This document shows, in pieces, positions 312 through 64,000 of a stretch of DNA of 64,000 nt. Positions within the stretch are counted from its first letter, which is position 1. The number at the start of each line of letters is the position of its first letter. The notes beneath the pieces were generated by a model. It was given only the letters and a program-made list of their open reading frames with translations. It searched no databases and had not been told where the DNA came from. The translations under genes and the position numbers were made by a program. Source of the stretch: an uncultured bacterium (GTDB taxonomy: Bacteria > Krumholzibacteriota > Krumholzibacteriia > JACNKJ01); assembly GCA_963695095.1 (NCBI GenBank), contig CAVOFT010000001.1, positions 3,051,849-3,115,848 on the forward strand. The letters are read 5' to 3'.

Positions 312-2548
312 TTGTTGAGCGATTCACCGGGAAAGGTCGCCATGCAAACTGAGCTGGAGCTGAGGGAAGCGCTGGCGCGTGACATCGACAGCCTCGCCGA
401 TCAGCTCTCCCAGGCCGCCGACGGCAACTTCGACTTCCGTGTACATACGGACTCCGCCGATGCGCGCGTGCAGAAGCTCGGGACGCTGGTCAACATCGTG
501 GTCGAGAGCGCGCGCCGGGCCATCGCCGAGCTCAAGCAGGAGCATCGCAGGCTGCAGGAAAGCGAGCAGCGGCACCGCGACTACATCGCGAACACGCCCC
601 TCGGCGTGTTCGTCACCGATGAGCGGGGCCGCTACGTCCAGGTCAACCCGGCGGCCTGCCGCATGACCGGCTACGCGGAGCACGAGCTGCTGGCCATGAG
701 GATCCCCGATCTCCTGGGCCGAGAGGGCATCGCCGCCGGGATGCGCTACTCCAGGCTGTCGCCGAGGCAGGCGAGGCGCATGACGAGTTCCGTTTCCGCA
801 CCAAGAGCGGCGAGCTGCGCTGGTGGTCCGTCTCCGCCGTGAAGCTGTCGGAGTCCCGTTTCATCGGCTTCTGCAGCGACATCAGCGAGCGCAAGCGCGC
901 CGAGGAGGCGCTACGGGAATCGCGCGAAGTGCTGCAGGGTGTTCTCGATGCCATCCCGGTGCGGGTCTTCTGGAAAGACAGAGAACCTGGTCTACCTCGG
1001 CTGCAATGCGGCCTTCGCGGGGGATGCGGGGGTCGCGGGGCCCGAGGCGGTCATCGGCAAGGACGACTTCGCGATGGGCTGGCGGGACCAGGCGGAGCTT
1101 TATCGAGCCGACGATCGCGCCGTGATCGAAGGCGGGCAAGCCAGACTCCTCATCGAGGAGCCGCAGACGACGCCCGACGGCGGGCAGATCCACCTGCTGA
1201 CGAGCAAGCTCCCCCTCCGCGCCGCCGACGGCGCCATCGTCGGCGTGCTCGGCACCTACTACGACATCACCCCCCTCCGCCGCGCGGAGCAGGACTACCG
1301 CACGCTGTTCCGCGAGATGCTGGACGGCTTCGCCTTGCACGAGATCATCTGCGACGCCGCCGGGCGGCCGGTGGATTACCGCTTCCTCGCCGCCAATCCG
1401 GCCTTCGAGCGCATGACCGGCCTCGAGGCGGCGGCGATCCTGGGGCGGACGGTCCTCGAGGTCCTGCCGGACCTCGACCGCTCCTGGATCGACACCTACG
1501 GCAAGGTGGCGCTGAGCGGCGAGCCGGCTCACTTCGAGGACGAGGTCGCGTCCATGGGCAAGCGCTTCGCGGTGTCGGCCTTCCGGCCCGCGCCGGGCCA
1601 GTTCGCCTGCTTCATCGCCGACGTCACCGCCCAGCGGCTGGCGGAGGCGGAGCAGCGCCGCCTCGAGGAGCAGCTCGGCCAGTCGCAGAAGCTGCAGGCG
1701 GTCGGCCAGCTCGCCGCCGGCATCGCCCATGAGATCAACACGCCCGCGCAGTTCGTGGGCGACAGCATCCAGTTCCTCGGCGACAGCATCGCGCCGATCG
1801 AGTCCCTCCTCGCGAAGTCCGGCGGCGGCTGGCCGACCTGCCGGCCACTGCCGAGCACGAGGAGCTGCGCGCGCAGATCGCGGCGGTCGAGGCCGCCGTC
1901 GACATCAACTTCGTGCTCGAGAACTTCCCCGGCGCCGTGGCCGACGCCAAGGACGGCGTCTCGCGGATCTCCACCATCGTGCGCGCGATGAAGGAATTCG
2001 CGCATCCGGACCAGAACGAGAAGGCCGCGGCAGATCTCAATCGCGCCCTCGAATCCACGCTGACCATCGCGCGCAGCGAGTACAAGTACGTGGCCGAGCT
2101 GGTCACCGAATTCGGCGAGATGCCGCCGGTGATCTGCCACCTCGGCGACCTGAACCAGGTCTTCCTCAACCTGCTGGTGAACGCCGCCCATGCGATCGGC
2201 GATGTCGTCGGCACGAGCGGCGCGCTGGGGACCATCCGCGTGCGCACGGCCCGCGAGGGCGACTGCGCGCGCATCGACATCGAAGACACGGGTGGCGGCA
2301 TTCCCGAGGCCGTCCGCGATCGCGTCTTCGAGCCCTTCTTCACGACCAAGGCGGTCGGCAAGGGCACCGGACAGGGCCTGGCCATCGCCCATGCGATCGT
2401 CGTCGGGAAGCACGGCGGCACGCTGCGCTTCACTTCCGAACTCGGCAAGGGCACCTGCTTCACGATTCGCCTGCCGCTCGTCCCCGTCGTCCCCGCGGCG
2501 ACGCCGCTCCCCTCCCACCAGTCACCGACTGGAGAAGGATCGACATGA
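312..2548 (+). pseudogene. PAS/PAC-domain sensor histidine kinase, reading frame broken at least 3 times
   Basis: Four consecutive ORF pieces (312..842, 839..~960, 939..1991, 1913..2548) alternate between two frames. Together they give two PAS/PAC domains, a coiled coil, a HisKA H-box (AAGIAHEINTP) and an HATPase_c domain (G-boxes DTGGGIP, GKGTGQGLAIA). Confidence 0.75.
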
Positions 2549-8940: not shown

Positions 8941-9411
8941 CGACTCGGGGGGGACGTTGGCCGCGCTCGGGCAGGACCGAGGCCAGGAGAAAGGTGGCAA
9001 CGCCGCCCAGCCCAGGCCAGCCGGAGCCACAAGCCGCGCGCGAAACCCTGCATGCCCCCGCCTCCTGCCCGCACACCGCAAAGGCTGACTCGATGCGGTC
9101 CCAGTGTAGCACCGCGTCGGGACGCCGTCGAGGTGCCGGCCGGCGACGCTTGACGCCGGCGCCGCGGCCGCTATCCTTGAGGCTTCACCCGCGGGCTATC
9201 CCGGAAAGGGCTGATGTCGACCGTTGCTCTCCATGAGGGACAGGCCTAGGGCGAAGCGGCAAGGCCACGCGGCCAAAGGGCCGTGCGCCGCTGCTTCGTC
9301 TCTCGCCTGCTCCCCTGCCAGCGCAGACCGCGCCGGGCGATACGCGCACCGGCGGCCGGGTTCTGCGCCGTTCGTGCACACCCCAACCGCACGCAAATGG
9401 AGAGCACCGCA

Positions 9412-10495
9412 ATGAGCGATCTGAAGGCCCTGGGTTTCGGCCCCTATTTCCAAGCACAATTCGAGGCGTGGGCCGAGCCCGCGCTGATTCCCGCCCGCGT
9501 CGCCGCCGAGCACCACGGCGCCTATGAAGTGTGGACGGCGAGCGACCGCCGGCCAGGCCAAGCTCGCCGGGCGCCTGCGCCGCGAGCTTGCGGAGAGCGA
9601 AGCGCCCACGGCCGGCGACTGGGTCGCCCTGCGCGAGGCGCCGGGCCCGGACAGCATCGCATTGATCGAGCGCGTCTTCGCGCGGCGCACGGTCTTCACC
9701 CGCGGCGCCGCGGGGCGCGAAGGCGGGTGCAGGTGGTGGCGGCCAATGTCGATCTCGTCTACGTGGTGAGCAGCATGGACGCCGACTTCAACCTGCACCG
9801 CATCCAGCGCTACCTGGCCCGCATCCACGCCGGCGGCGCCACGCCCGGCGTCATCTTGAACAAGGCGGATCTCTGCGCGGACGTGGCCGACCGTGTGCTC
9901 GACGTGGAGCTGGCCTGCCCCGGCGTGCCCGTCCACGCGGTGAGCGCGCTGCGCGGCGAGGGCGTCGCGGCCATCCGCGCGGCGGTCGGCCCGGGGATGA
10001 CCGCGGCCTTCCTCGGCTCCTCGGGGACGGGGAAGTCCACCCTGATCAATGCCCTCCTCGGCGAGGCGCGATGGCCACCGGCGCCGTGCGCGCCTACGAC
10101 GGCAAGCGGCCGCCACACCACCAGCCACCGGCAGCTCCTGCGCCTGCCCGGCGGCGGGCTGCTGCTCGACACGCCCGGCATGCGCGAGCTGCAGCTCGCT
10201 CGACGAGCGACGGGCTGGACGCGGTCTTCCCGGAGATCGCCGCGCTGGCCGCCGCAGTGCCGCTTCCCGGACTGCCGGCACGAGGGCGAGCCGGGCTGCG
10301 CCGTGCAGGCGGCGATGGCGGCGGGCGCGATCGGCGCCGAGGCGCTCGCGCACTGGCGCAAGCTCGAGAAGGAGGCCCACGCCTACGCGCTGCGGCAGGA
10401 CGTGCGCCTGCGGCGCGAGGCAGGAACGCGCCTGGGGACGCCGCTACGCGCAGGCGATCAAGGAGCTGAAGCCGAAGCGCCGCGAAGCGCGCTAG
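9412..10495 (+). pseudogene. rsgA: Ribosome small-subunit-dependent GTPase A (RsgA/YjeQ), broken by at least 3 frame switches
   Basis: An OB-fold N-terminus is followed by a circularly permuted GTPase (NVDLVYVVSS, ILNKADL, GSSGTGKSTLINAL) and a zinc-finger C-terminus (CRFPDCRHEGEPGCAV). The pieces lie in ORFs 9283..10509, 9524..9769 and 10049..10495. A GGAGAG RBS precedes the ATG at 9412. Confidence 0.7.
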
Positions 10496-10540
10496 CCTTG
10501 GGTCCTTGAGAGGCATGCGCACAAACGGCGCCTCCGCGCG

Positions 10541-10612
10541 CCGGCTTGCGGCCCTGGCCGAGGCGGAGTGTACACGTGTACAAAACAAGCCGCCCTGCCG
10601 GGTCGTGATCTG
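10541..10612 (+). repeat. ~70-bp remnant homologous to an internal segment of the DUF222-HNH gene at 31369..31438
   Basis: ~88% nucleotide identity, including the perfect palindrome TGTACACGTGTACA. It translates to ALAEAECTRVQNKPPCRVVIC, against ALAESECTRVQNEPPYQVVIY in the intact gene. It is intergenic, between rsgA and the pectate lyase gene. Confidence 0.6.
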
Positions 10613-10636
10613 CCCGGCGGGGACGCTGCGCGCCGA

Positions 10637-12070
10637 TCAGGGCAGCAGTTGATCGGCCAGCGCGTTGATGTACTCCTCGATGGCCGTGTAGCCCGAGGGC
10701 ATCAGCGTGGCGTGATCGCTGCCGTCCGTGGGATCAAGGCCGTGGCTTCGCTCCCAGGCGTCGGCCATGCCGTCGTCATCGCCGTCGGGCGGCGGCGTGC
10801 CGGGCGTCAGGCCCGCCATGAGGTCGGCGGGAATGCGCGCGCCCCACTCGCCGGTGCGCTGCTCGGTCTCCGCGACGGCCGTGAGGGTGACGATGTCGCG
10901 CGGCCAGGCGCCGGCCTGCTCGAGCACTGCCGCGTAGGCGGCCTGGGGCGTTTGCGTGGTGATCGGAATGTAGTCGGGATAGGCAGCCGCGAAGTCGTGC
11001 TCGCGCGTCGCGCGGTACTCCTCGCCCTTGCCCAGGCTGCCGTAGACGTCGAGGAAGAGCGCGTCGGCCCAGGGATCGGCGACGATGCCGAGATAGTCGC
11101 CGGGGTCGTCCACGAAGTTGTCGGCGATGGCGTAGGCCAGTCCCTCGCCCGGCGTGTCGTCGAGCGCGAAGGGCTTGGCGCTGCCGTCGGGCCCCTGCTT
11201 GTAGGTGTTGCCGACGATGTTGAACTGCCCGGAGGGCGGGTTGTGGTGCGTGAACCCGCGGTGGAAGTTGTAGACGACGTTGTTCTTCACCTCCACCGGT
11301 CCCCGCGCGCAGGCGGGATTGCGCGTGCTGTGATGGGCGAAGAGGTTGTGATGCAGGCTCACGCGCGGCCGGTTCGACAGCAGCCCGTAGTTGTGCTGGC
11401 CTTCGGGATGCCCCTCGATCGCGGACATGGAGAGCGTCGACCACTGCACGGTGATGTCCGTCACGGTGAAGATGCCCATCGTCTCGTCCACGGCGAAGGC
11501 GGCCGAAACGTGGTCGAAGATCGCCAGGCCGCTTTCGACGAGCTGGATGCCGTCATAGGAGCCGCCGCCCTCGCCCGCGAAGGCAGGGCGGATGCGCAGG
11601 TGGCGGACGATGAGGTTGTTCGCCGCGTCGGCGCCGTAGAGCCGACCCCTGATCGTGATGCCGGCGCCCGGCGCGGTCTGGCCGGCGATCGTCAGGTCGC
11701 CGTGCCGGATCCGGATCGGGTCCGCCTCGATCACGCCCGACACCGCGAACACGACGATGCGCGGCTCGCCCTGGTCCAGCGCCTCCTGCAGGCTGCCGGG
11801 GCCGGAGGCAGCCAGGGTCGTCACCTTGATCACCCGGCCGCCGCGGCCGCCGGTGGCCTGGGCGCCGAAGCCCTCGGCGCCGGGAAAGGCCAGCACGGGC
11901 TGCGGGTCCTCGTCGCCCGGGTCGGAGGGGCCGACGGGATCGCGGGTGTCCCGGTCGCAGCCGGCGCCGAAGCCGAGCAGCGCAAGCAGGCCGAGGCGGA
12001 CGAGCAGCGCGGCAAGACTGCCGGCAAGAGGGCCCGGCGATGGCGTGGCGGCGAGATGGCGTGGACGCAT
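10637..12070 (-). CDS. Pectate lyase (PL1-like) lipoprotein
   Basis: An intact 477-aa ORF with a lipobox (LLGFGAGC). It carries the pectate-lyase signature AFPGAEGFGAQATGGRGGRVIKVTTL..IVFAVSGVI, beta-helix repeats and an Asp-rich C-terminal tail. Confidence 0.8.
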   Translation of the reverse strand: MRPRHLAATPSPGPLAGSLAALLVRLGLLALLGFGAGCDRDTRDPVGPSDPGDEDPQPVLAFPGAEGFGAQATGGRGGRVIKVTTLAASGPGSLQEALDQGEPRIVVFAVSGVIEADPIRIRHGDLTIAGQTAPGAGITIRGRLYGADAANNLIVRHLRIRPAFAGEGGGSYDGIQLVESGLAIFDHVSAAFAVDETMGIFTVTDITVQWSTLSMSAIEGHPEGQHNYGLLSNRPRVSLHHNLFAHHSTRNPACARGPVEVKNNVVYNFHRGFTHHNPPSGQFNIVGNTYKQGPDGSAKPFALDDTPGEGLAYAIADNFVDDPGDYLGIVADPWADALFLDVYGSLGKGEEYRATREHDFAAAYPDYIPITTQTPQAAYAAVLEQAGAWPRDIVTLTAVAETEQRTGEWGARIPADLMAGLTPGTPPPDGDDDGMADAWERSHGLDPTDGSDHATLMPSGYTAIEEYINALADQLLP

Positions 12071-30583: not shown

Positions 30584-30697
30584 CCTTGGTCCGTCAAACG
30601 GATCAAGGAGGGGGGACGGGACGCTTGCCGCAACTGAGCCCGTGCCGGTGCCCGTGAGCACGCCGGCCTGCGGCGATGGTATTTATTGGCGATGCAC

Positions 30698-30726
30698 TTG
30701 CCCGTCGCGATCTCTCATAGTATATT
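30698..30726 (+). promoter_or_regulatory. Near-consensus sigma70 promoter upstream of the HNH gene
   Basis: TTGCCC, a 17-nt spacer, then TATATT. It sits in a local AT-rich island ~45 nt upstream of the ATG at 30773, in an otherwise 70% GC context. Confidence 0.45.
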
Positions 30727-30772
30727 GTGAGCCTCCCCGCCTCCTGCGTCCTCGATCTCGCGAGGGCTCTCC

Positions 30773-31804
30773 ATGTCCGAGTTCGTGCCGAATCTCCCCG
30801 CCGCCGCGGTGGATGCCCACCTGCGCGCGGCCGTCGCTAAGTTGCGCCGCGCCGAGCAGAATGCCGTTCTCTGGTTCGCCGAGCTGATACGCAGGCGCCT
30901 CTACCGCGACTGCGGCTACTCCAGCATTCATGCCTACGCCGAGGCCGTGCTGGGCTTCGGGCAGGCGAAGACCTATCAGTTCATCCGGCTGGCGGAGTCG
31001 CTCGATGGCCTGCCCCGGCTGCGAGCCTCGGTCGAGGCCGGCGAGATGCCCTGGACCAAGGCCCGCAGCGTGGCAGCGGTCGCCACGCCGCGCTCCGAGG
31101 TCCAGTGGATCGCGCTCGCGAAGGCGAGCAGCGCGCGCCAGCTCGAGTCGAAGATTCGCGAGAGCCGCCGCGAGGCGCAACGCCTGCCCGGCCAGGGCGA
31201 CCTGCTGGCGCCAGCCGCCGAGCTGCCGACCGCGCCCGCGCCGATCCCCGTACCGGCGCCGAAGGTGCAGGTTAGCTTCACGCTCGAGCCGGAGCAGTAC
31301 GCCCGCTGGCTGGCCATCGTCGAGCGGCTGCGCAAGCAAGGGCACGCCGAGGAGAAGGCCGAGCTGCTGCTGGCTGCCTTCGCCGCGCTGGCCGAGTCCG
31401 AGTGTACACGTGTACAAAACGAGCCGCCCTACCAGGTCGTGATCTACCGCTGCAAGGACTGCGGCGCGACGCGCCTGCCCGACGGGCGCCCCCTGGCGCC
31501 GGCAGTGGCCGCGCAGGCAACCTGCGACTGCCGAACGCAGCGAGAAGGCCAGCCTAATCGCGCATCGATCCCGCCCGCTCTGCGCCGGCAGGTACTCGCG
31601 CGCGACGGCCACCGCTGCCAGGCCCCGGGCTGCCGCTCCACGCGTTTCCTCGAGGTGCATCACCGCGAGCCGCGCCGGCGGGGCGGCCGCAACAGCACGG
31701 CGAACCTGATCACCCTCTGCGCGGCCTGCCACCGACTTCTGCACGAGAGCGGCGCGGGGCTTGCCGCCGCACTGCCGGTAGCGAACTTGCCGAACACCGG
31801 CTGA
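30773..31804 (+). CDS. DUF222 (13E12-repeat-like) N-terminal domain plus C-terminal HNH endonuclease
   Basis: The HNH motif is CQAPGCRSTRFLEVHHREPRRRGGRNSTANLITLCAACHRLLH. The N-terminus resembles DUF222 (LWFAELIRRRLYRDCGYSSIHAYA). Intact. Confidence 0.8.
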   Translation: MSEFVPNLPAAAVDAHLRAAVAKLRRAEQNAVLWFAELIRRRLYRDCGYSSIHAYAEAVLGFGQAKTYQFIRLAESLDGLPRLRASVEAGEMPWTKARSVAAVATPRSEVQWIALAKASSARQLESKIRESRREAQRLPGQGDLLAPAAELPTAPAPIPVPAPKVQVSFTLEPEQYARWLAIVERLRKQGHAEEKAELLLAAFAALAESECTRVQNEPPYQVVIYRCKDCGATRLPDGRPLAPAVAAQATCDCRTQREGQPNRASIPPALRRQVLARDGHRCQAPGCRSTRFLEVHHREPRRRGGRNSTANLITLCAACHRLLHESGAGLAAALPVANLPNTG

Positions 31805-32034
31805 TTGACGCCAACCTGGATCCGTCGATCTCCCGCCCCGGCGAACGCCGCCCCCGGCAATGGACCTGGGTCGAGCCTCCGTCTGGCTGCCTTCGTCGTG
31901 CCGCCCCCGGGAGCCGCCGGGGCTGGCCCCACAGCGGCCCCTAGCCTCGCCAGGGCCGCGCTCCCAGCCCATCCCAAAGCCGCGCAAGCACTTGCCCACC
32001 CGCCCCCGGGGGCGAGTTTACGGCTAATCATGTC

Positions 32035-32062
32035 TTGAAAGCCTGATAACCTTGGCTATATT
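32035..32062 (+). promoter_or_regulatory. Putative sigma70 promoter of the MFS gene
   Basis: TTGAAA, a 16-nt spacer, then TATATT, in an AT-rich patch upstream of 32112. Confidence 0.4.
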
Positions 32063-43781: not shown

Positions 43782-46091
43782 CTAGCGAATCAGCACGATG
43801 CGCGCCGCCCGCGAGCGTTCACCCCGATTCATCTCCAAGCGAGCAAAGTAGATGCCGCTTGCGGCGGCTTCGCCCGCATCGTCGCGGCCGTCCCAGCTGC
43901 GCTCGCTCACGCCCGCCAGGAAATGCTCCCGGACAGCGAGGCTGCGCACGCGGCGGCCGGCGACATCGTAGATGAAGAGGCTGGCGCGCTGATCCGCGCG
44001 CAGCTCGAAGCGCAGGGTGACGTCGGCGCGGGCCGCGCCGGGCCGAAATGGACTGGGGTAGCTGCCGGCGAGAGCGAGGAAGGCGGGATTCTCGCTGTAG
44101 GTGAAGACCTCGGCGCCGAGGTCCCCGTTGACGGCCAGGCCGTAGCCCTGGGGCCCCAGGGGCACGCGGCGGCCGCGCAGGCGGATCTCCCAGGGGCCCG
44201 CCTCGGGAGCGATGATCAGCACCCGCTCCACCGTGTTGAGCGCATCGGCTTCGCCACCCGGCACCGATTCGCCCAGCTCCGCGTCGAAGCCGTTGCCGAG
44301 GTAGAGCTGTCCCGAGGGCGAGCGCAGTTCCAGGTCCAGGTCGTTGACCACGGGCTCGGCGACGAAGGGTTCCGCGGGCGGGTCCGTGAAGGCCAGCGTG
44401 ACGGCCAACGGCTCGGCGGCGGACTCGACCTCGAGCCGGTAGATGAGGAGGTCCCCCGTCTCCAGCCCCTCGGCATTGCGCTTCTCGGCCAGCCACAGCT
44501 CGCGGCTGTCGCCCGCGAAGTAGAGCGCCTCGTCGAGCACGAGGTGCCCCCAGCCCTCGCTGTCATTGGGATAGCCCGCCGGCAGGCTGTCCATGGGCAG
44601 GGTGCTGTTGATGAGCAGCGCCCTGAGCAGGGCGCCGCTGGGCACGAGCGAGTCGGCGGCCACGGGCGCGCCGCTCGGCCACCAACCCTCCACCAGGTAC
44701 TGGCGCGCCAGCGCCGCCGCCCCGGCCACGGCGGGACAGGCCATCGAGGTGCCGCTGCTGGTCGTCCAGCCGCAGGGCAGGGCCCGGTTCGCGGAATCGA
44801 TCGCGTAGCCGGGCGCATAGAGCTCCGGCTTGCGGCGGCCATCGGCCGTGGGGCCCATGCCGCCGCTGTAGTGCTCGTCGCAGCCATGGTAGCCGCCGCC
44901 GAAGCTGTCATTGGTGTAGCTCGCGCCCACGGCAAGGGTGCTCTTGGCGTTCTCGGGCGTATAGAGCAAGCCGGCATTGGTGACGGCCCAGATCAGCAGC
45001 GCCTCTTCCTGGTCGTGGCTGAAGGCATCGATGTCCACGCAGAGCTCGGTGTAGCTGGTGATCCCATCCGCGCCCCAGCTATTGGTGTGCACGCGGGCGC
45101 CGGCAGCGTGGTGCAGGGCGAAGTCCGCATAGACGTCGTAGACGCCGGTGGGCACGTAGTTGGAATGCGCCAGCCGTGCCGCCCAGGCGCCGCCCCGCTT
45201 CTGCGCGCCCATCTGATCGTCAATCGGCAGCGCATCGCCCGCCACCGTGCCCGCCGTGTGGGTGCCGTGATTGCTGCCCCAGCCGGCGTACTCGCCGATG
45301 AAGACCACCTTGCGGTGCGCGGGCCCGATGGGCTCGCCGTCCGGATCGGCGAAGAAGCAGCTGGCCGGAGCGAAGTTGGAGTCGATGTGGCCGACGATCT
45401 GCCCCTCGCCATGGAGGCCCCGATCCCAGATCGGCCGCTGATCCGCTGCCGCGCTCTGGACGCTCCAGCTGCTGTCATCGTTGCGGTCGGTGAGCGGCAG
45501 CGTGGGCGAAGCCCAGAGCAGACCGGGCAGGGCGGCTAGCGCCGGCAGCAGCGCGGACGGCGCGCTCAGCCAGAGCCGCGGCCGTGCCGAGCGTGCGCTG
45601 CTGCCCAGCAGTTCGGCGCCGAGGGCCAGGGCCATGTCGGCGCGAAGGGCGATGGGCGTGCCCGGCGCGAAGCTCAAGGTGATCGCCACCGACTTGCCGC
45701 CCGCGCGCGCCGCCAGCGCGGCCAGCTCGGGCGCCAGGCGCCACTCCGGGCGACAGTCCGTGAGCAAAGCGACGCCGGCGAGGGCGGACAGGCGCACCCC
45801 GGCGGCGGCGTCCGCGCGGAGCAGATAGGCGTCATCGGGCAGATAGGCCAGGATCTCGGCGCCGGCGGCGGCGAGCGCATCGCGATCCGCACGGCCAGGT
45901 GCGTGGTCGAACCGCAAGATGCGCAGATCGTCGCTCGCCTCGCTGCCGCGGGCGCTCAGGGCAGGGTCGCCGGCGCGCAGGGTGCCGGCGCGCAGGCGCA
46001 GGGCGCCGCTCTCGCCTGCGGCTGCCGCCTGGGCAAGTACGCCACCAAAGATGAGCAGGACCGCGAGGAGGGGCGGGCGGCGAGCGGGCAT
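43782..46091 (-). CDS. Subtilisin-like S8 serine peptidase with a propeptide and a T9SS C-terminal sorting domain
   Basis: The catalytic triad is D (GHIDS), H (HGTHTAG) and S (GTSMACP). The C-terminus reads SPFRPGAARADVTLRF..GIYFARL..RIVLIR. The signal peptide is at the Met at 46091. Confidence 0.85.
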   Translation of the reverse strand: MPARRPPLLAVLLIFGGVLAQAAAAGESGALRLRAGTLRAGDPALSARGSEASDDLRILRFDHAPGRADRDALAAAGAEILAYLPDDAYLLRADAAAGVRLSALAGVALLTDCRPEWRLAPELAALAARAGGKSVAITLSFAPGTPIALRADMALALGAELLGSSARSARPRLWLSAPSALLPALAALPGLLWASPTLPLTDRNDDSSWSVQSAAADQRPIWDRGLHGEGQIVGHIDSNFAPASCFFADPDGEPIGPAHRKVVFIGEYAGWGSNHGTHTAGTVAGDALPIDDQMGAQKRGGAWAARLAHSNYVPTGVYDVYADFALHHAAGARVHTNSWGADGITSYTELCVDIDAFSHDQEEALLIWAVTNAGLLYTPENAKSTLAVGASYTNDSFGGGYHGCDEHYSGGMGPTADGRRKPELYAPGYAIDSANRALPCGWTTSSGTSMACPAVAGAAALARQYLVEGWWPSGAPVAADSLVPSGALLRALLINSTLPMDSLPAGYPNDSEGWGHLVLDEALYFAGDSRELWLAEKRNAEGLETGDLLIYRLEVESAAEPLAVTLAFTDPPAEPFVAEPVVNDLDLELRSPSGQLYLGNGFDAELGESVPGGEADALNTVERVLIIAPEAGPWEIRLRGRRVPLGPQGYGLAVNGDLGAEVFTYSENPAFLALAGSYPSPFRPGAARADVTLRFELRADQRASLFIYDVAGRRVRSLAVREHFLAGVSERSWDGRDDAGEAAASGIYFARLEMNRGERSRAARIVLIR

Positions 46092-49796: not shown

Positions 49797-49814
49797 CCCG
49801 CCCCCGGGGGCGGG
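49797..49814. terminator. GC-palindrome hairpin downstream of the beta-helix gene
   Basis: CCCGCCCCCGGGGGCGGG is a perfect 18-bp palindrome ~22 nt after the stop. There is no U-tract. The same core recurs at 32001..32014 and a similar one at ~43694..43710. Confidence 0.35.
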
Positions 49815-61184: not shown

Positions 61185-64000
61185 CTACTTCACGAGCAGC
61201 AGGGTGCGGCTGGCGCGAAGGCCTCCGGCCTCGAGACGACAGAAGTAGGCCCCCGAGGCGAGCGGCGCGCCGTCGGCGCCACGGGCCTCCCAGCGCAGGC
61301 GATGCTCGCCCGCGGGCAAGGGCGCCGCGGCGAGCGGCCGGGCCACCTCGCGGCCCAGCACATCGAGAATGCGCAGCGTCACGCGAGCCGCCGCCGGCAG
61401 ACCGAATCGCAACTCGGTGGCGGGGTTGAAGGGATTGGGATGGTTGGGCGCCAGGTAGAAGCCGCTGGGCGCCGGCAAGCTCGCCGTCAGCGTGCAGCCC
61501 ACGGTGTAGAGGCCCACCAGGGCCGCGCAGTCGTTGTTCTCGGGCAGACAGGGCGAGGCATCGGCGAGCGTGTACTCGGCTCCCGTCACCGCGCAGTAGA
61601 GCGGATCCGCAGCGAAGCAGTCCCCGCCCGGCGTCTCCGCGTAGCCGGCATAGGGCTCGCTGCCATTGCCGAAGATGTCGCTGCAAGTCCAGAGCGTGGA
61701 ACTGGGAGCGTCCGCCTCGTGGAGAGCGCCGCCACTCTGGGCCTCGTTGAAGGTGACGAGCAGGCGTTCGAGCGCGAGCGTGGCCGCGTAGGCCAGGCCG
61801 ATGGCCCCGCCCCGCGCGGCCTGATTGTCGCTGAGCGTGGACTGGGCGATCTGCGGCGCGCCGCCGCTGAGGTAGACGGCGCCCCCGCTCTCGGCAGCCA
61901 GGTTGTCGTGCGCGAGCAGGTGACTGAACTGGGGAGCGCCGCCGAAGCTGGCCAGGCCGCCGCCGTTGCCGGTAACCGTGCCGTAGGCCTGGTTGCGGCG
62001 CAGGACCAGTCCCTCCACCTGCGACAGCGAGCCGCCCAGCACCAGGCCGCCGCCGGCGCCCTTGGCGCGACAGTCCTCGATCACCAGATTGCGCAGGGTG
62101 GGCGAGGCATTGCTCACGCGAATGCCGCCGCCGTTGTTGGATTCCCACTCGTAGTAGACGTGGCCGCCGCGAATCGTGAAGCCGTCGACGACGGCCCCTG
62201 GCCCCTCGCCGTGCTCGAAGTTGATTGCCCGGCCGGCCAGCTCGCAGTCGATGATCGTCAGGGCCGCCCCGCCTTCGCTGCGCAGCACCACGTCGTGGCC
62301 GCCGAAGTCGAGCCGCTTGTTGCCCGGGCCGCGATAGGTGCCCGGCGCCACGAGCACGGTGTCGCCGTCGACCGAGACGTCGAGAGCGGATTGGATGTCC
62401 GCGTACTCCGCCGGCACGCGGTGCAAGGTGCCGCGCTGGGCGAGGAAGTCCTGACCGGAGATGTCGGCGATGACGTCGGTGTAGCTCCGGTAGGGCGGCG
62501 TGAAGGTGTAGTCTTGCGCCAGGGGCACGATGATCCCCGTCCAGTGGTCCGGCACGAGGACGAGGTAGTCGCCCCCGGCGTCCGTGTGCGCCTCGTAGAA
62601 GCTGCCGTAGACCCCGGCGCCGACCAGGGGCGAGCCGCCCGGGTCCGCGATGCGGCCGGCGATCGCGCGGTGGATGTTGTCGCAGCCCACGGGCAGCGGT
62701 CCGATGTCCAGGCCGCAGCTGTTGTTGGCGGCCGCGCAGGGGGAGTCCGCATCGAGATGGAAGTCGCGGGTGAGCGGCGCGCAGAAGAGCGGGTTCGCGC
62801 TGAAGTTGCCGTCCTGGCCGCTCAGGTCGACGGCGCTGCCCCTCCAGTCGCCGCCGGCGTTGCCGAAGACATCGCTGCAGCTCGCGGCGAAGCCGGCGCC
62901 GCCGGCGGCCTCGAGGCCGCCGCCCTCGAAGCTGAAAACCGCCAGGCTCCGCGTCAGGGTAACCAGGCTGGCCTGATCCGCCCAGATCGCCCCGCCGCCG
63001 TTGTCGGCGCTGTTGAAGGCCAGCACGCTGGCCACGAACTCAGGCGTGGACGCCAGGCAGTAGAGAGCGCCGCCTCGATTCGCCGCGCTGTTGTCGTAGA
63101 GCTGGCAGCCCTGGAAGCTCGGGGCCGCGCCGGCGGCGCAGAACAGGCCGGCGCCATCGTCCGCAGCGGTGTTGTGGTGAATGACCAGATCGATCGCGGT
63201 CGGCGAGGCACTGATGCAGGCGAGGCCGCCGCCGTCCGTGAGGCCGTGGTTTTGCATGAGGATGAGATTCTCGAGCGTCGGCGCGCTGCCGATGCACAGG
63301 ATGCCGGCGCCGGTCGTGTGGCGACCGTTCTTGATCGTGAAGCCGCTCAGCTTGGTCGCCGCCGTCTCGCCGCTCACGAAGAGGAAGCCGGGGGCCGCCG
63401 TCTGGCAATCGATGACGGTGACGGCCGGTCCGCCCGAGCTCAGGATGACCAGGTTCTTGCCGCCCGTGCTCAGGTTGCGATTGCCCGTTCCGGTGTAGGT
63501 GCCGGGCGCGACGCGCACGGTGTCGCCCGGCACGGCCACATCGATGGCCGCCTGCAGCGTGGCATACTCCAGGGGCACCTCGTGCACGTGGATGTTGCCC
63601 GTGCACGCCTCGCCGAAGCGGCCCATCTGCACGCCGCAACCGTTGCCCCCGGGCAGGCAGGGCGAGCTCTCGTGCAGGCCCAGCGGCGTACCGTCGCCGG
63701 CGGCCCCGCAGAACACCGGGTCGGTGGCGAGGTTGCCGCCGCTGCCGGTGGCATCGGCCAGGGTGCCGGCGTAGCCGGGAGCGCCGCCGCCCCAGACGTC
63801 GCAGCAGGTGATGGCCAGGGCGGCGGACCCGGCGCCGTGCAGGCCGTCCGGCAGGTTCAGCGCCAGCAGGCAGGCGCTCAGCGTGGCCAGCGCCGCCCCG
63901 TCCAGCGAGAGGGCGCCGCCGACGCGCGCGGCCGTGTTGGTGTGGATGGTGGAGCCGTCCACGCTCGGCAGCGCCGCCCCCTCGCAGCGCAGGGCGCCGC
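61185..64000 (-). CDS. Very large parallel beta-helix repeat protein with a T9SS C-terminal sorting domain (5' end beyond the window)
   Basis: There are more than 20 PbH1-like repeats (GGALYC..., GGAIWADQ..., GGGIRVSNASPTLRNLVIEDC...). The C-terminus reads HPNPFNPATELRF..GAYFCRLEAGGLRASRTLLLVK. The ORF is open to the window edge. Confidence 0.7.
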   Translation of the reverse strand, partial: GALRCEGAALPSVDGSTIHTNTAARVGGALSLDGAALATLSACLLALNLPDGLHGAGSAALAITCCDVWGGGAPGYAGTLADATGSGGNLATDPVFCGAAGDGTPLGLHESSPCLPGGNGCGVQMGRFGEACTGNIHVHEVPLEYATLQAAIDVAVPGDTVRVAPGTYTGTGNRNLSTGGKNLVILSSGGPAVTVIDCQTAAPGFLFVSGETAATKLSGFTIKNGRHTTGAGILCIGSAPTLENLILMQNHGLTDGGGLACISASPTAIDLVIHHNTAADDGAGLFCAAGAAPSFQGCQLYDNSAANRGGALYCLASTPEFVASVLAFNSADNGGGAIWADQASLVTLTRSLAVFSFEGGGLEAAGGAGFAASCSDVFGNAGGDWRGSAVDLSGQDGNFSANPLFCAPLTRDFHLDADSPCAAANNSCGLDIGPLPVGCDNIHRAIAGRIADPGGSPLVGAGVYGSFYEAHTDAGGDYLVLVPDHWTGIIVPLAQDYTFTPPYRSYTDVIADISGQDFLAQRGTLHRVPAEYADIQSALDVSVDGDTVLVAPGTYRGPGNKRLDFGGHDVVLRSEGGAALTIIDCELAGRAINFEHGEGPGAVVDGFTIRGGHVYYEWESNNGGGIRVSNASPTLRNLVIEDCRAKGAGGGLVLGGSLSQVEGLVLRRNQAYGTVTGNGGGLASFGGAPQFSHLLAHDNLAAESGGAVYLSGGAPQIAQSTLSDNQAARGGAIGLAYAATLALERLLVTFNEAQSGGALHEADAPSSTLWTCSDIFGNGSEPYAGYAETPGGDCFAADPLYCAVTGAEYTLADASPCLPENNDCAALVGLYTVGCTLTASLPAPSGFYLAPNHPNPFNPATELRFGLPAAARVTLRILDVLGREVARPLAAAPLPAGEHRLRWEARGADGAPLASGAYFCRLEAGGLRASRTLLLVK

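Follow-up and report, generated by a model that had tools for sequence, protein, structure and literature searches.

The subject of this analysis is a gene for an HNH nuclease in a 64,000-nucleotide stretch of DNA from an uncultured bacterium (contig CAVOFT010000001.1; the whole stretch is referred to as the window). The coding sequence of the gene contains a perfect 14-bp palindrome, TGTACAC-GTGTACA (TGTACACGTGTACA; in palindromes and their cores the hyphen marks the centre of symmetry), which we consider, with good though not complete confidence, to be a functional site in duplex DNA. The N-terminal domain of the encoded protein is predicted to have the fold of the ParB and Noc DNA-binding domains, and we propose, at about even chances of being right, that the palindrome is the cognate parS-like site of this domain and brings the HNH nuclease to copies of its own gene.

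The palindrome in the HNH gene and its homologs

An earlier note on this DNA had described an exact 14-bp palindrome coding for ECTRVQN and had taken it for a functional site at the level of DNA, not a by-product of coding; the description proved exact, and rare codons, nucleotide conservation and covariation all speak for the interpretation. The palindrome lies in the frame GAG TGT ACA CGT GTA CAA AAC, is centred on the C-G of the Arg213 codon and encodes C211-T-R-V-Q215. Within the 64 kb it has two exact occurrences (31403..31416 and 10569..10582), and allowing up to three mismatches adds none. The codons TGT, ACA, CGT, GTA and CAA are rare, their frequencies among synonyms in six window genes being 0.081, 0.026, 0.039, 0.033 and 0.094, respectively, which gives a joint probability of 2.5 × 10−7 for the five codons given the peptide. 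The same 14 nucleotides are present at every readable locus of clade A (L002-L008, L088-L090, and L009 at 48% protein identity), such that the palindrome is conserved among orthologs. In the AlphaFold2 model the encoded peptide lies inside a segment predicted to be disordered (residues 212-220), and the other positions at which homologs have palindromes (residues 147 and 159 and the C-terminal tail) are likewise predicted to be disordered.

Homologous loci were gathered by protein similarity, blind to palindromes. Distant homologs have different perfect palindromes centred on the same Arg codon (five are listed in Table 1), and across the family the palindromes fall into class A with the core CAC-GTG, class B with the core CCC-GGG (e.g. 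TGCCCCCCGGGGGGCA) and class C with the core GCCGGC (e.g. ACTTGCGCCGGCGCAAGT). Related sequences also occur elsewhere in the genes. Homologs without a palindrome at the Arg codon carry one at another position: in L001 and L010-L012 it is TTTACAC-GTGTAAA, read in a different frame at about residue 226, and in others a TGCGCC-GGCGCA core lies within palindromes of 16-22 bp at about residue 243 (L013, L021, L024, L026 and L030), residue 159 (L022) or residue 147 (L026), and TGCGCC-GGCGCA is also found at about residue 214 in homologs. Class C genes have a further palindrome copy at their extreme 3′ end; in L013 (1147..1168 and 1416..1433), L021, L026 and L030, two identical 16-22-bp palindromes, ∼265-285 bp apart, flank the segment that codes for the HNH domain, both encoding 'LAPAQV', and in L022 (1499, 2291, 2888) a third copy lies 270 bp 5′ of the gene. 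At the homologous place (∼31490) the window gene has a decayed version, CTGGCGCCGGCAG, which encodes 'LAPAV'.

In 28 non-redundant genes the longest perfect palindrome exceeded that of shuffled sequences, with a combined Fisher p of 1 × 10−6 for synonymous-codon shuffling and 7 × 10−9 for codon permutation. The strictly longest palindrome fell in an 18-residue linker zone in 12 of the 28 genes (binomial p from 6.5 × 10−6 to 3 × 10−3, depending on how lineages are counted). Centring a palindrome on the C-G of an Arg codon makes the flanking codons reverse complements of each other, and the residue pairs on the two sides of the Arg obey this rule: C is paired with Q or H, S with D or E, G with P, A with A, V with T, L and F with N or K, and R with R. 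Among 120 homologs there are 22 distinct pentapeptides of the form X-(T/P)-R-(V/G)-X, of which 14 are compatible with the outer base pairs where 2.7 would be expected. A test for any 14-nt palindrome gave ∼42 chance positives per protein and was uninformative, and an Arg-centred test was used instead. Applied to 137 representatives (≤50% identity), this test found that in the linker zone palindrome-capable pentapeptides surround 52 of 387 Arg residues, compared with 81 of 4,764 elsewhere (odds ratio 9, p = 1.7 × 10−25), the enrichment involving 50 proteins and 31 distinct pentapeptides. Since only the Arg is kept as an amino acid, it is the symmetry that is conserved.

That the palindrome has no function in DNA, being a by-product of a conserved peptide or a chance occurrence, is effectively excluded. 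Palindromes of 14 bp are not rare in a gene of 72% G+C, shuffling of the window gene alone gave a p of only 0.2-0.4 for its longest palindrome (the weight rests on the family-level and position-specific tests), and R213 is invariant at the protein level in the alignment. Such an origin is, however, at odds with the improbable codon choice, with nucleotide identity persisting at 48% protein identity, with flanking residues that covary as reverse-complement codons about a lone conserved Arg, with the predicted disorder of the peptide and with the appearance of the same DNA sequence in other frames and at other positions.

Compensatory changes that preserve self-complementarity are also the classic signature of a stem, and a hairpin in mRNA or single-stranded DNA might act as an RNase III or stability element, as a translational pause between domains, or as a replication or transfer signal. 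The class C palindromes would form a stable hairpin (−17.5 kcal/mol, z = −2.3). However, the palindromes are symmetric right across their centres (ACGT, CCGG), at positions that a loop would leave free to vary, and the arms are nearly all Watson-Crick paired with hardly any G-T. The class A stem would comprise five A/U-rich base pairs and does not stand above shuffles (z = −1.2); across the classes stability differs widely whilst length and symmetry are kept, and Rfam gave no match. A duplex site with two-fold symmetry fits these features better than a stem, and we regard a hairpin function as very improbable. An intrinsic terminator was considered separately and rejected, as the terminator scan does not call the palindrome and its stem of five A/U-rich base pairs is followed by AAAAC. 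Other long perfect palindromes in the window, G+C-rich and with arms of 9-10, lie at 62903..62922, 44106..44123 and 49797..49814, and their sequences are unrelated to that in the HNH gene.

The encoded protein and its putative site

AlphaFold2 modelled the full protein with a mean predicted local distance difference test (pLDDT) score of 80.6 as a helical region (residues 1-140), a disordered stretch (141-172), helices (173-210), a second disordered stretch (212-220), a zinc ribbon and the HNH domain. The N-terminal domain modelled on its own reached a pLDDT of 92.9 and a predicted template modelling score (pTM) of 0.81, and its 25 best Foldseek matches in the PDB are all ParB, Noc or Spo0J, mostly with probabilities of 0.8-1.0. 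The best fit was to the DNA-binding domain of Noc on the Noc-binding site, NBS (6y93_A; probability 1.0, target-normalised TM-score 0.68-0.72, root mean square deviation 2.5-2.8 Å over 104 columns). The Pfam HTH_ParB profile matched weakly in 8 of 26 relatives. No match to the ParBc (ParB/Srx CTPase) domain was found in the query or its relatives, and the model proceeds from a long helix directly to the helix-turn-helix (HTH). As modelled, then, the protein resembles the DNA-binding module of ParB only and is not a ParB.

ParB and Noc domains bind two-fold symmetrically to parS (TGTTTCAC-GTGAAACA) and NBS (TATTTCCC-GGGAAATA), respectively (PMC7383237). Class A palindromes share the CAC-GTG core with parS and class B palindromes share the CCC-GGG core with NBS; there is no canonical parS in the window. 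The palindrome class tracks the protein clades, and the putative recognition helix (residues 64-79) reads QAKTYQF or PSKTSQF in class A, KSKAGDF in class B and DNRYWQF in class C, where TKAQ or TKAT also replaces TKAR in four of the six sequences that cover the region. This match between class and helix would fit co-evolution of domain and site. The evidence narrows the candidate roles that had been listed for the palindrome to that of a site for the protein's own ParB/Noc-like domain; what follows from binding we infer.

The site could instead serve another factor, either as an integrase attachment site or as a restriction-modification or methylation site. The attB sites of serine integrases are dyad-symmetric, the phage phiRv1 uses REP13E12 as its attachment site in M. 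tuberculosis, and the cores CACGTG, CCCGGG and GCCGGC, each with a CpG inside, coincide with common type II recognition sequences. Several relatives are labelled 'McrA' in the source databases, and REP13E12 has been described with a putative prophage attachment site (PMC13061034). Against this, no element is integrated at the palindrome in ∼30 loci and no methyltransferase or integrase accompanies the mobile unit described below, the palindrome class tracks the phylogeny of the gene itself, and a divergent paralog (P0037) has a different linker peptide. We judge a role for another factor to be improbable.

The open reading frame (ORF) is whole and its HNH match lies above the Pfam cutoff, which bears out the earlier call of an intact HNH nuclease. 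PF01844 matched residues 281-325 with 41.3 bits (cutoff 21.4; E = 1.7 × 10−10) and is matched by all 26 aligned relatives; in the family alignment the catalytic His and Asn columns and the two zinc Cys pairs are invariant or almost so. Sequence matches of the HNH domain in the PDB are IscB, which is the best, McrA and a group II intron maturase, whilst Foldseek matched the C-terminal part of the model to McrA, ScoMcrA, Gme HNH, Cas9 and other CRISPR-associated HNH domains. In the zinc-ribbon region C251 and D252 are invariant in alignment A2 and C230 is nearly so, and relatives give weak matches to zinc-ribbon Pfam profiles; the palindromes that homologs have at about residues 226 and 243 fall in this region.

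Assignment of the protein to DUF222 did not hold. PF02720 gave no match to the query even at E ≤ 1 and is matched by only 5 of the 26 relatives (best E = 4.8 × 10−7), L017 scoring 23.7 bits against a cutoff of 24.4. By sequence comparison, the query is a distant DUF222/REP13E12 relative and not a member of the profile. Neither did the actinobacterial framing of the gene find support: the nearest named relatives of the neighbouring genes are Candidatus Krumholzibacteriia/-ota, and the host looks Krumholzibacteriota-like rather than actinobacterial.

The mobile unit, its copies and signs of DNA turnover at the palindrome

The protein search returned 403 relatives. Eight family members are listed on a contig of 3,610,528 bp, the length also listed for the contig of the window's MFS transporter, namely P0001 (identical to the query), P0007, P0506, P0507, P0009, P0013, P0053 and the divergent P0037, and are presumably paralogs in the source genome; the gene, which had been called solitary, is so within the window alone. 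One related assembly has at least four copies (P0002, P0003, P0015 and P0026) beside unrelated neighbours, on contigs of three different lengths with P0026 and P0003 sharing one length, and further copies are located between two EamA genes. In the window a DUF3857/transglutaminase pair stands on one side of the gene and a major facilitator superfamily (MFS) transporter gene on the other, as the earlier note had stated. Related genomes with the same flanking genes have an empty site (L091, a Krumholzibacteriia metagenome-assembled genome; L093; L094), at which the DUF3857 pair is followed directly by the MFS gene and the spacer measures 180-217 bp, compared with 1,469 bp in the window. This identifies the HNH unit as an insertion. 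Divergence of the empty-site spacers prevents the junction from being located to the base, and these spacers contain no ACACGTGT. The proposal of a low-copy selfish element agrees with these multiple copies, with their differing contexts across genomes and with the empty site in related genomes. Neither of the conditions named as refuting it, a lack of other copies and poor conservation of the palindrome among orthologs, was borne out.

Similarity among 6-7 copies in unrelated contexts extends from ∼40-110 bp 5′ of the ATG to ∼20 bp after the stop codon, which delimits a unit of ∼1.15 kb that comprises promoter and ORF and little else (Table 1). The similarity begins at a block, GCGAYGCACTTGAC..TAGTATAWT, with weaker similarity ∼40 bp farther upstream, and the 5′ untranslated region (UTR) is conserved. 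The HNH gene is the only ORF of the unit, and no terminal inverted repeats, target-site duplications or transposase were seen in the 6-7 aligned copies; a transposon or insertion sequence was rejected for these reasons. The TTGCCC-17-TATATT promoter that had been called near-consensus is present, although 9 of 12 consensus positions make that description generous. In a promoter scan of the 2.5-kb region there were two such sites against 0.1 expected, and a block of the form GCAC(T/C)TG(A/C)C..TA(G/T)TGTATA(T/A)T is kept in six copies in different contexts. A second strong promoter-like site, TTGAAA-16-TATATT (10/12) at 32035..32062, precedes the MFS transporter gene and is kept in L008; a similar site also precedes the MFS gene at the empty site L091. 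In six copies the arms of the 5′ UTR hairpin (CCTCG/CGAGG) are invariant and its loop is variable, a pattern that suggests translational control, although the fold energy is not above shuffles (z = −0.06). The hairpin at the 5′ edge of the unit is partly conserved in sequence in L002 and L090 and possibly insulates the unit from read-through. At the other end of the gene, the C-terminal tail varies in P0506, P0053 and P0007 by expansion of an 'ALPAA'-type repeat (e.g. AALPAAALPAPALPAAALPVAG in P0506), which makes it a second slippage-prone stretch.

Table 1. Features of the window and palindromes at the equivalent Arg codon of five homologs
Feature	Position	Strand	Description
Mobile unit, approximate edges	30650..31826	+	upstream hairpin, promoter, 5′ UTR, ORF and ∼20 bp beyond the stop codon
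Terminator-like hairpin	30661..30687	+	CGCCGGCCTGCGGCG and T-rich tail; 5′ edge of unit; from terminator scan; weak evidence
Sigma-70-like promoter	30698..30726	+	−35 TTGCCC, 17-nt spacer, −10 TATATT; 9/12 consensus positions
5′ UTR hairpin	30748..30767	+	GUCCUCG-N6-CGAGGGC; centroid structure; 3′ arm overlaps GAGG Shine-Dalgarno sequence
HNH gene (ORF)	30773..31804	+	intact, 343 residues; ParB/Noc-like domain, linker, two helices, linker, zinc ribbon, HNH
N-terminal all-helical domain	30773..31192	+	residues 1-140; predicted ParB/Noc-type HTH fold
Linker 1	31193..31288	+	residues 141-172; Pro/Ala-rich, predicted disordered; pLDDT <50 at residues 141-155; holds the palindrome in some homologs
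Palindrome	31403..31416	.	TGTACACGTGTACA; perfect, 14 bp; centred on C-G of the Arg213 codon
Zinc-ribbon region	31433..31540	+	C227-x2-C230 ... C251-x-C253
HNH nuclease domain	31613..31747	+	residues 281-325; H296, H297, N311, H320, H324; Cys pairs C282/C287 and C316/C319
Remnant of another unit copy	10548..10635	+	∼90 bp; collinear with 31382..31471; in rsgA/pectate-lyase spacer
Second exact palindrome copy	10569..10582	.	within the remnant
Palindrome of L015			ACCCCCC-GGGGGGT; same Arg codon
Palindrome of L016			CGGTGCGCC-GGCGCACCG; same Arg codon
Palindrome of L017			TGCCCCCC-GGGGGGCA; same Arg codon
Palindrome of L018			GTGCCCCC-GGGGGCAC; same Arg codon
Palindrome of L029			GGCCCCCC-GGGGGGCC; same Arg codon

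A decayed second copy had been placed at 10541..10612. Such a copy exists and contains the exact palindrome, though its coordinates are 10548..10635; it is 83% identical over 90 bp to 31382..31471 (E = 3 × 10−19) and fills the spacer between the convergent rsgA and pectate-lyase genes. As it carries the 'AEAE' variant of the paralogs where the window gene has 'AESE', it derives from another copy. Strict conservation of the palindrome in this second copy had been offered as a sign of function, but the argument has little weight: the 66-nt core has 6 mismatches, and any one 14-mer would be spared by chance with a non-significant p of 0.22. The same junction in relatives holds an aldo-keto reductase gene and a 200-residue ORF, followed by rsgA (L097), or a methyltransferase gene (L095, L096), and no HNH fragment was found there in L095-L097. 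From its sequence, the patch is best read as what is left of a unit where the junction has been rearranged, and comparison with L095-L097 makes this junction (10497..10636) look like a rearrangement hotspot. For the adjacent rsgA (9283..10509) to match the RsgA of L097, two or more reading frames are required, residues 1-335 aligning in one frame at only 61% identity and the last 23 residues in another, and an overlapping 81-residue ORF (9524..9769) matches the RsgA of L097 better in a third frame; rsgA is either a pseudogene or affected by indel errors in the single-contig assembly.

DNA around the palindrome shows signs of turnover in many family members. Tandem duplications or triplications of a 27-bp unit that contains the palindrome ('TEAECTRVQ') occur in many clade A copies, usually with only the last unit staying perfect. 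There are three units in L088 (1227..1294; two perfect and one with a single mismatch) and two in L089 (10631..10671; the first decayed), and the duplication is evident at the protein level in P0012, P0015, P0017-P0019, P0021, P0029, P0035, P0053 and P0507. Independent duplications are present in clade B (L028, L029). Near the gene there are further cognate palindromes, on both its upstream and its downstream side in L022 and at a distance of 5 kb in L016. Two additional copies of the cognate TGCCCCCCGGGGGGCA occur in L017 (5802..5825 and 11912..11927), making three in 13 kb against ∼0.007 expected. One of them, in a PabB/TrpE-like gene, encodes LPPGGQF where solved homologs have LP--FEF and LP----FQ, and looks like a 12-nt in-frame insertion judging from this alignment; the other is inside an alanine-racemase-N/D-serine-dehydratase-like gene. 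All palindrome copies seen in the window's own clade lie in sequence that comes from the HNH gene.

In the reading we favour, the ORF is one copy of a compact selfish gene, inserted between the DUF3857/transglutaminase and MFS genes, and the palindrome would be bound by a dimer of the ParB-like domain. The site occupies the part of the gene that codes for a linker predicted to be disordered, where the protein may tolerate any sequence. A site inside its own ORF is never separable from the gene, which would thus carry its recognition site wherever it moves, with the nuclease recruited to its own copies. Binding, together with nicking or cutting next to the site, could set off repair and recombination there. 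Among the outcomes would be gene conversion between copies, tandem duplication in place and short collinear patches, of which the second copy in the window would be an example; the bound site might in addition hinder transcription into the nuclease half. The recombination proposal agrees with the gene-conversion hotspots of REP13E12, with the duplications and with the remnant. An extension of it, which we hold to be speculative and unlikely, is a minimal selfish element that uses its own centromere-like palindrome in cis, nicking driving both conversion of copies and templated short-patch insertion. In-frame seeding of the palindrome into other genes would follow, the PabB-like gene of L017 being an instance, and remnants like 10548..10635 would be left behind.

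Binding without cutting would suffice if the palindrome were only an operator, the domain acting on it as a transcriptional roadblock that limits the toxic nuclease half whichever promoter reads in. This reading draws on the evidence already given for a cognate site in duplex DNA and is free of the paradox that the nuclease would attack the gene encoding it. It also accommodates the recurrence of intragenic palindromes between the parts coding for the DNA-binding domain and the HNH domain, to which class C adds one at the 3′ end, and the unit's own promoter and possible upstream terminator suggest tight control of expression. Yet an operator located at the promoter would be simpler and none is seen in clades A and B, and neither the 3′-end sites of class C nor sites kilobases away in other genes can block transcription of the nuclease. 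The tandem duplications and the site-centred remnant would be left unexplained as well, though replication slippage could account for them. A purely regulatory role is the foremost of the rival readings but seems doubtful to us.

Several points weigh against the recruitment of the nuclease to its own gene by a cognate palindrome. Three distant homologs (L025, L027 and L033) have no long palindrome at the linker or at the positions used by their relatives, L033 having only a 14-bp palindrome at about residue 324. A plasmid collection yielded one actinobacterial DUF222 gene, the sole such gene inspected (L087; a DUF222-HNH gene of Rhodococcus erythropolis plasmid NZ_CP050126.1), and it has no internal palindrome with arms of at least 6. 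The Foldseek E-values of the ParB/Noc matches are weak (0.05-0.8) and, since a sequence profile of the N-terminal region found no ParB in the PDB, the ParB/Noc assignment rests on the predicted fold; we infer binding of the domain to the palindrome from that fold and from symmetry. Phylogeny confounds the correspondence of palindrome class with protein clade. No other solo fragments or sites were found in ∼80 kb of flanks of clade A relatives, and some extragenic G/C palindromes (L019, L023) resemble ordinary terminators and may be unrelated. Palindromes alone provoke replication slippage, such that the duplications need no nuclease, and the paralogs are only 86-88% identical, which means that gene conversion cannot be frequent. 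Finally, it would seem self-defeating for a nuclease to cut its own gene, and the bias that would make it selfish is not apparent.

L087 has a perfect 16-bp palindrome, CGTCCCCG-CGGGGACG, at 1636..1651, 95 bp 5′ of its start codon, which could be a terminator or an operator. The viral collection gave HNH-domain matches only and no full-length relatives.

Comparison with known systems

IscB/HEARO elements provide the best sequence matches of the HNH domain. Membership was rejected, as there is no RuvC domain and the NCBIfam IscB profile aligned with nothing but the HNH part, at 49.6 bits where the cutoff is 175; an Rfam search gave no match to HEARO/omega-RNA or to any other family.

REP/RAYT systems and Rickettsia palindromic elements are similar in having short palindromes clustered around one gene family. 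Rickettsia palindromic elements insert in frame in genes, as the L017 palindrome lies in frame within a PabB/TrpE-like gene. Unlike in REP/RAYT, the enzyme here is an HNH nuclease and not a RAYT-type (HUH) transposase, and the palindromes are perfect, 12-22 bp long and mainly inside the gene itself.

HNH homing endonucleases such as I-HmuI likewise combine the HNH domain with a separate helix-turn-helix module. They are small selfish genes with presence/absence polymorphism at a conserved locus, as is seen here from L091, L093 and L094, and I-HmuI nicks both DNA that carries its gene and DNA without it. In contrast to homing endonucleases, the presumed site is intact within its own ORF and not split by the insertion, the copies occupy unrelated intergenic loci instead of one homologous target, and the site is a perfect palindrome.

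The REP13E12/DUF222-HNH genes come closest in overall form: genes of ∼1-1.4 kb with a helical N-terminal region and a C-terminal HNH domain, in several dispersed copies per genome, lacking a transposase and any known function. PF02720 is matched by relatives of the query at 45-50% identity but not by the query itself, whose host is Krumholzibacteriota-like. Mycobacterial REP13E12 loci are among the most frequent gene-conversion loci in M. tuberculosis, and genes of this type 'lack defined biological function' (PMC13061034). A search of the full-text literature, with most subscription journals outside its reach, found no description of an internal palindrome or a ParB-like fold in DUF222/REP13E12. 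To our knowledge, no earlier work describes a family-wide palindrome that covaries within the codons of a disordered linker and is accompanied by a ParB/Noc-like domain. The family is broad (1,271 clusters at 50% identity in a profile search with E ≤ 1 × 10−30) and, if the speculative reading of a minimal selfish element is true, the DUF222/REP13E12 superfamily (>1,200 clusters) would work by a mechanism distinct from both transposition and classical homing. The predicted ParB/Noc-type fold and the lineage-matched covarying palindrome make the function of the family testable at a defined 14-bp site. The palindrome is also a clear example of a non-coding constraint that is concealed in the codons of a disordered linker and can be detected from amino-acid covariation alone.

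With ParB-parS and Noc-NBS the unit shares the fold of the DNA-binding domain, as predicted, and perfect palindromes of 14-16 bp with CAC-GTG or CCC-GGG cores. It differs in that the query lacks the N-terminal CTPase (ParB/Srx) and C-terminal dimerisation domains, the DNA-binding domain is fused to a zinc ribbon and an HNH domain, and the gene is multi-copy and mobile rather than part of chromosome segregation. The specificity of ParB and Noc diverges through few residues (PMC7383237). The family would be a natural series of co-evolved pairs of ParB-like domain and palindrome, with CACGTG, CCCGGG and GCCGGC cores, and such pairs would be useful for work on the evolution of DNA-binding specificity and possibly as programmable site-specific nickases. 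The placement of the site within the gene for its presumed binding protein also has a parallel, as parS sites can lie in coding regions, including inside B. subtilis parB (spo0J) itself.

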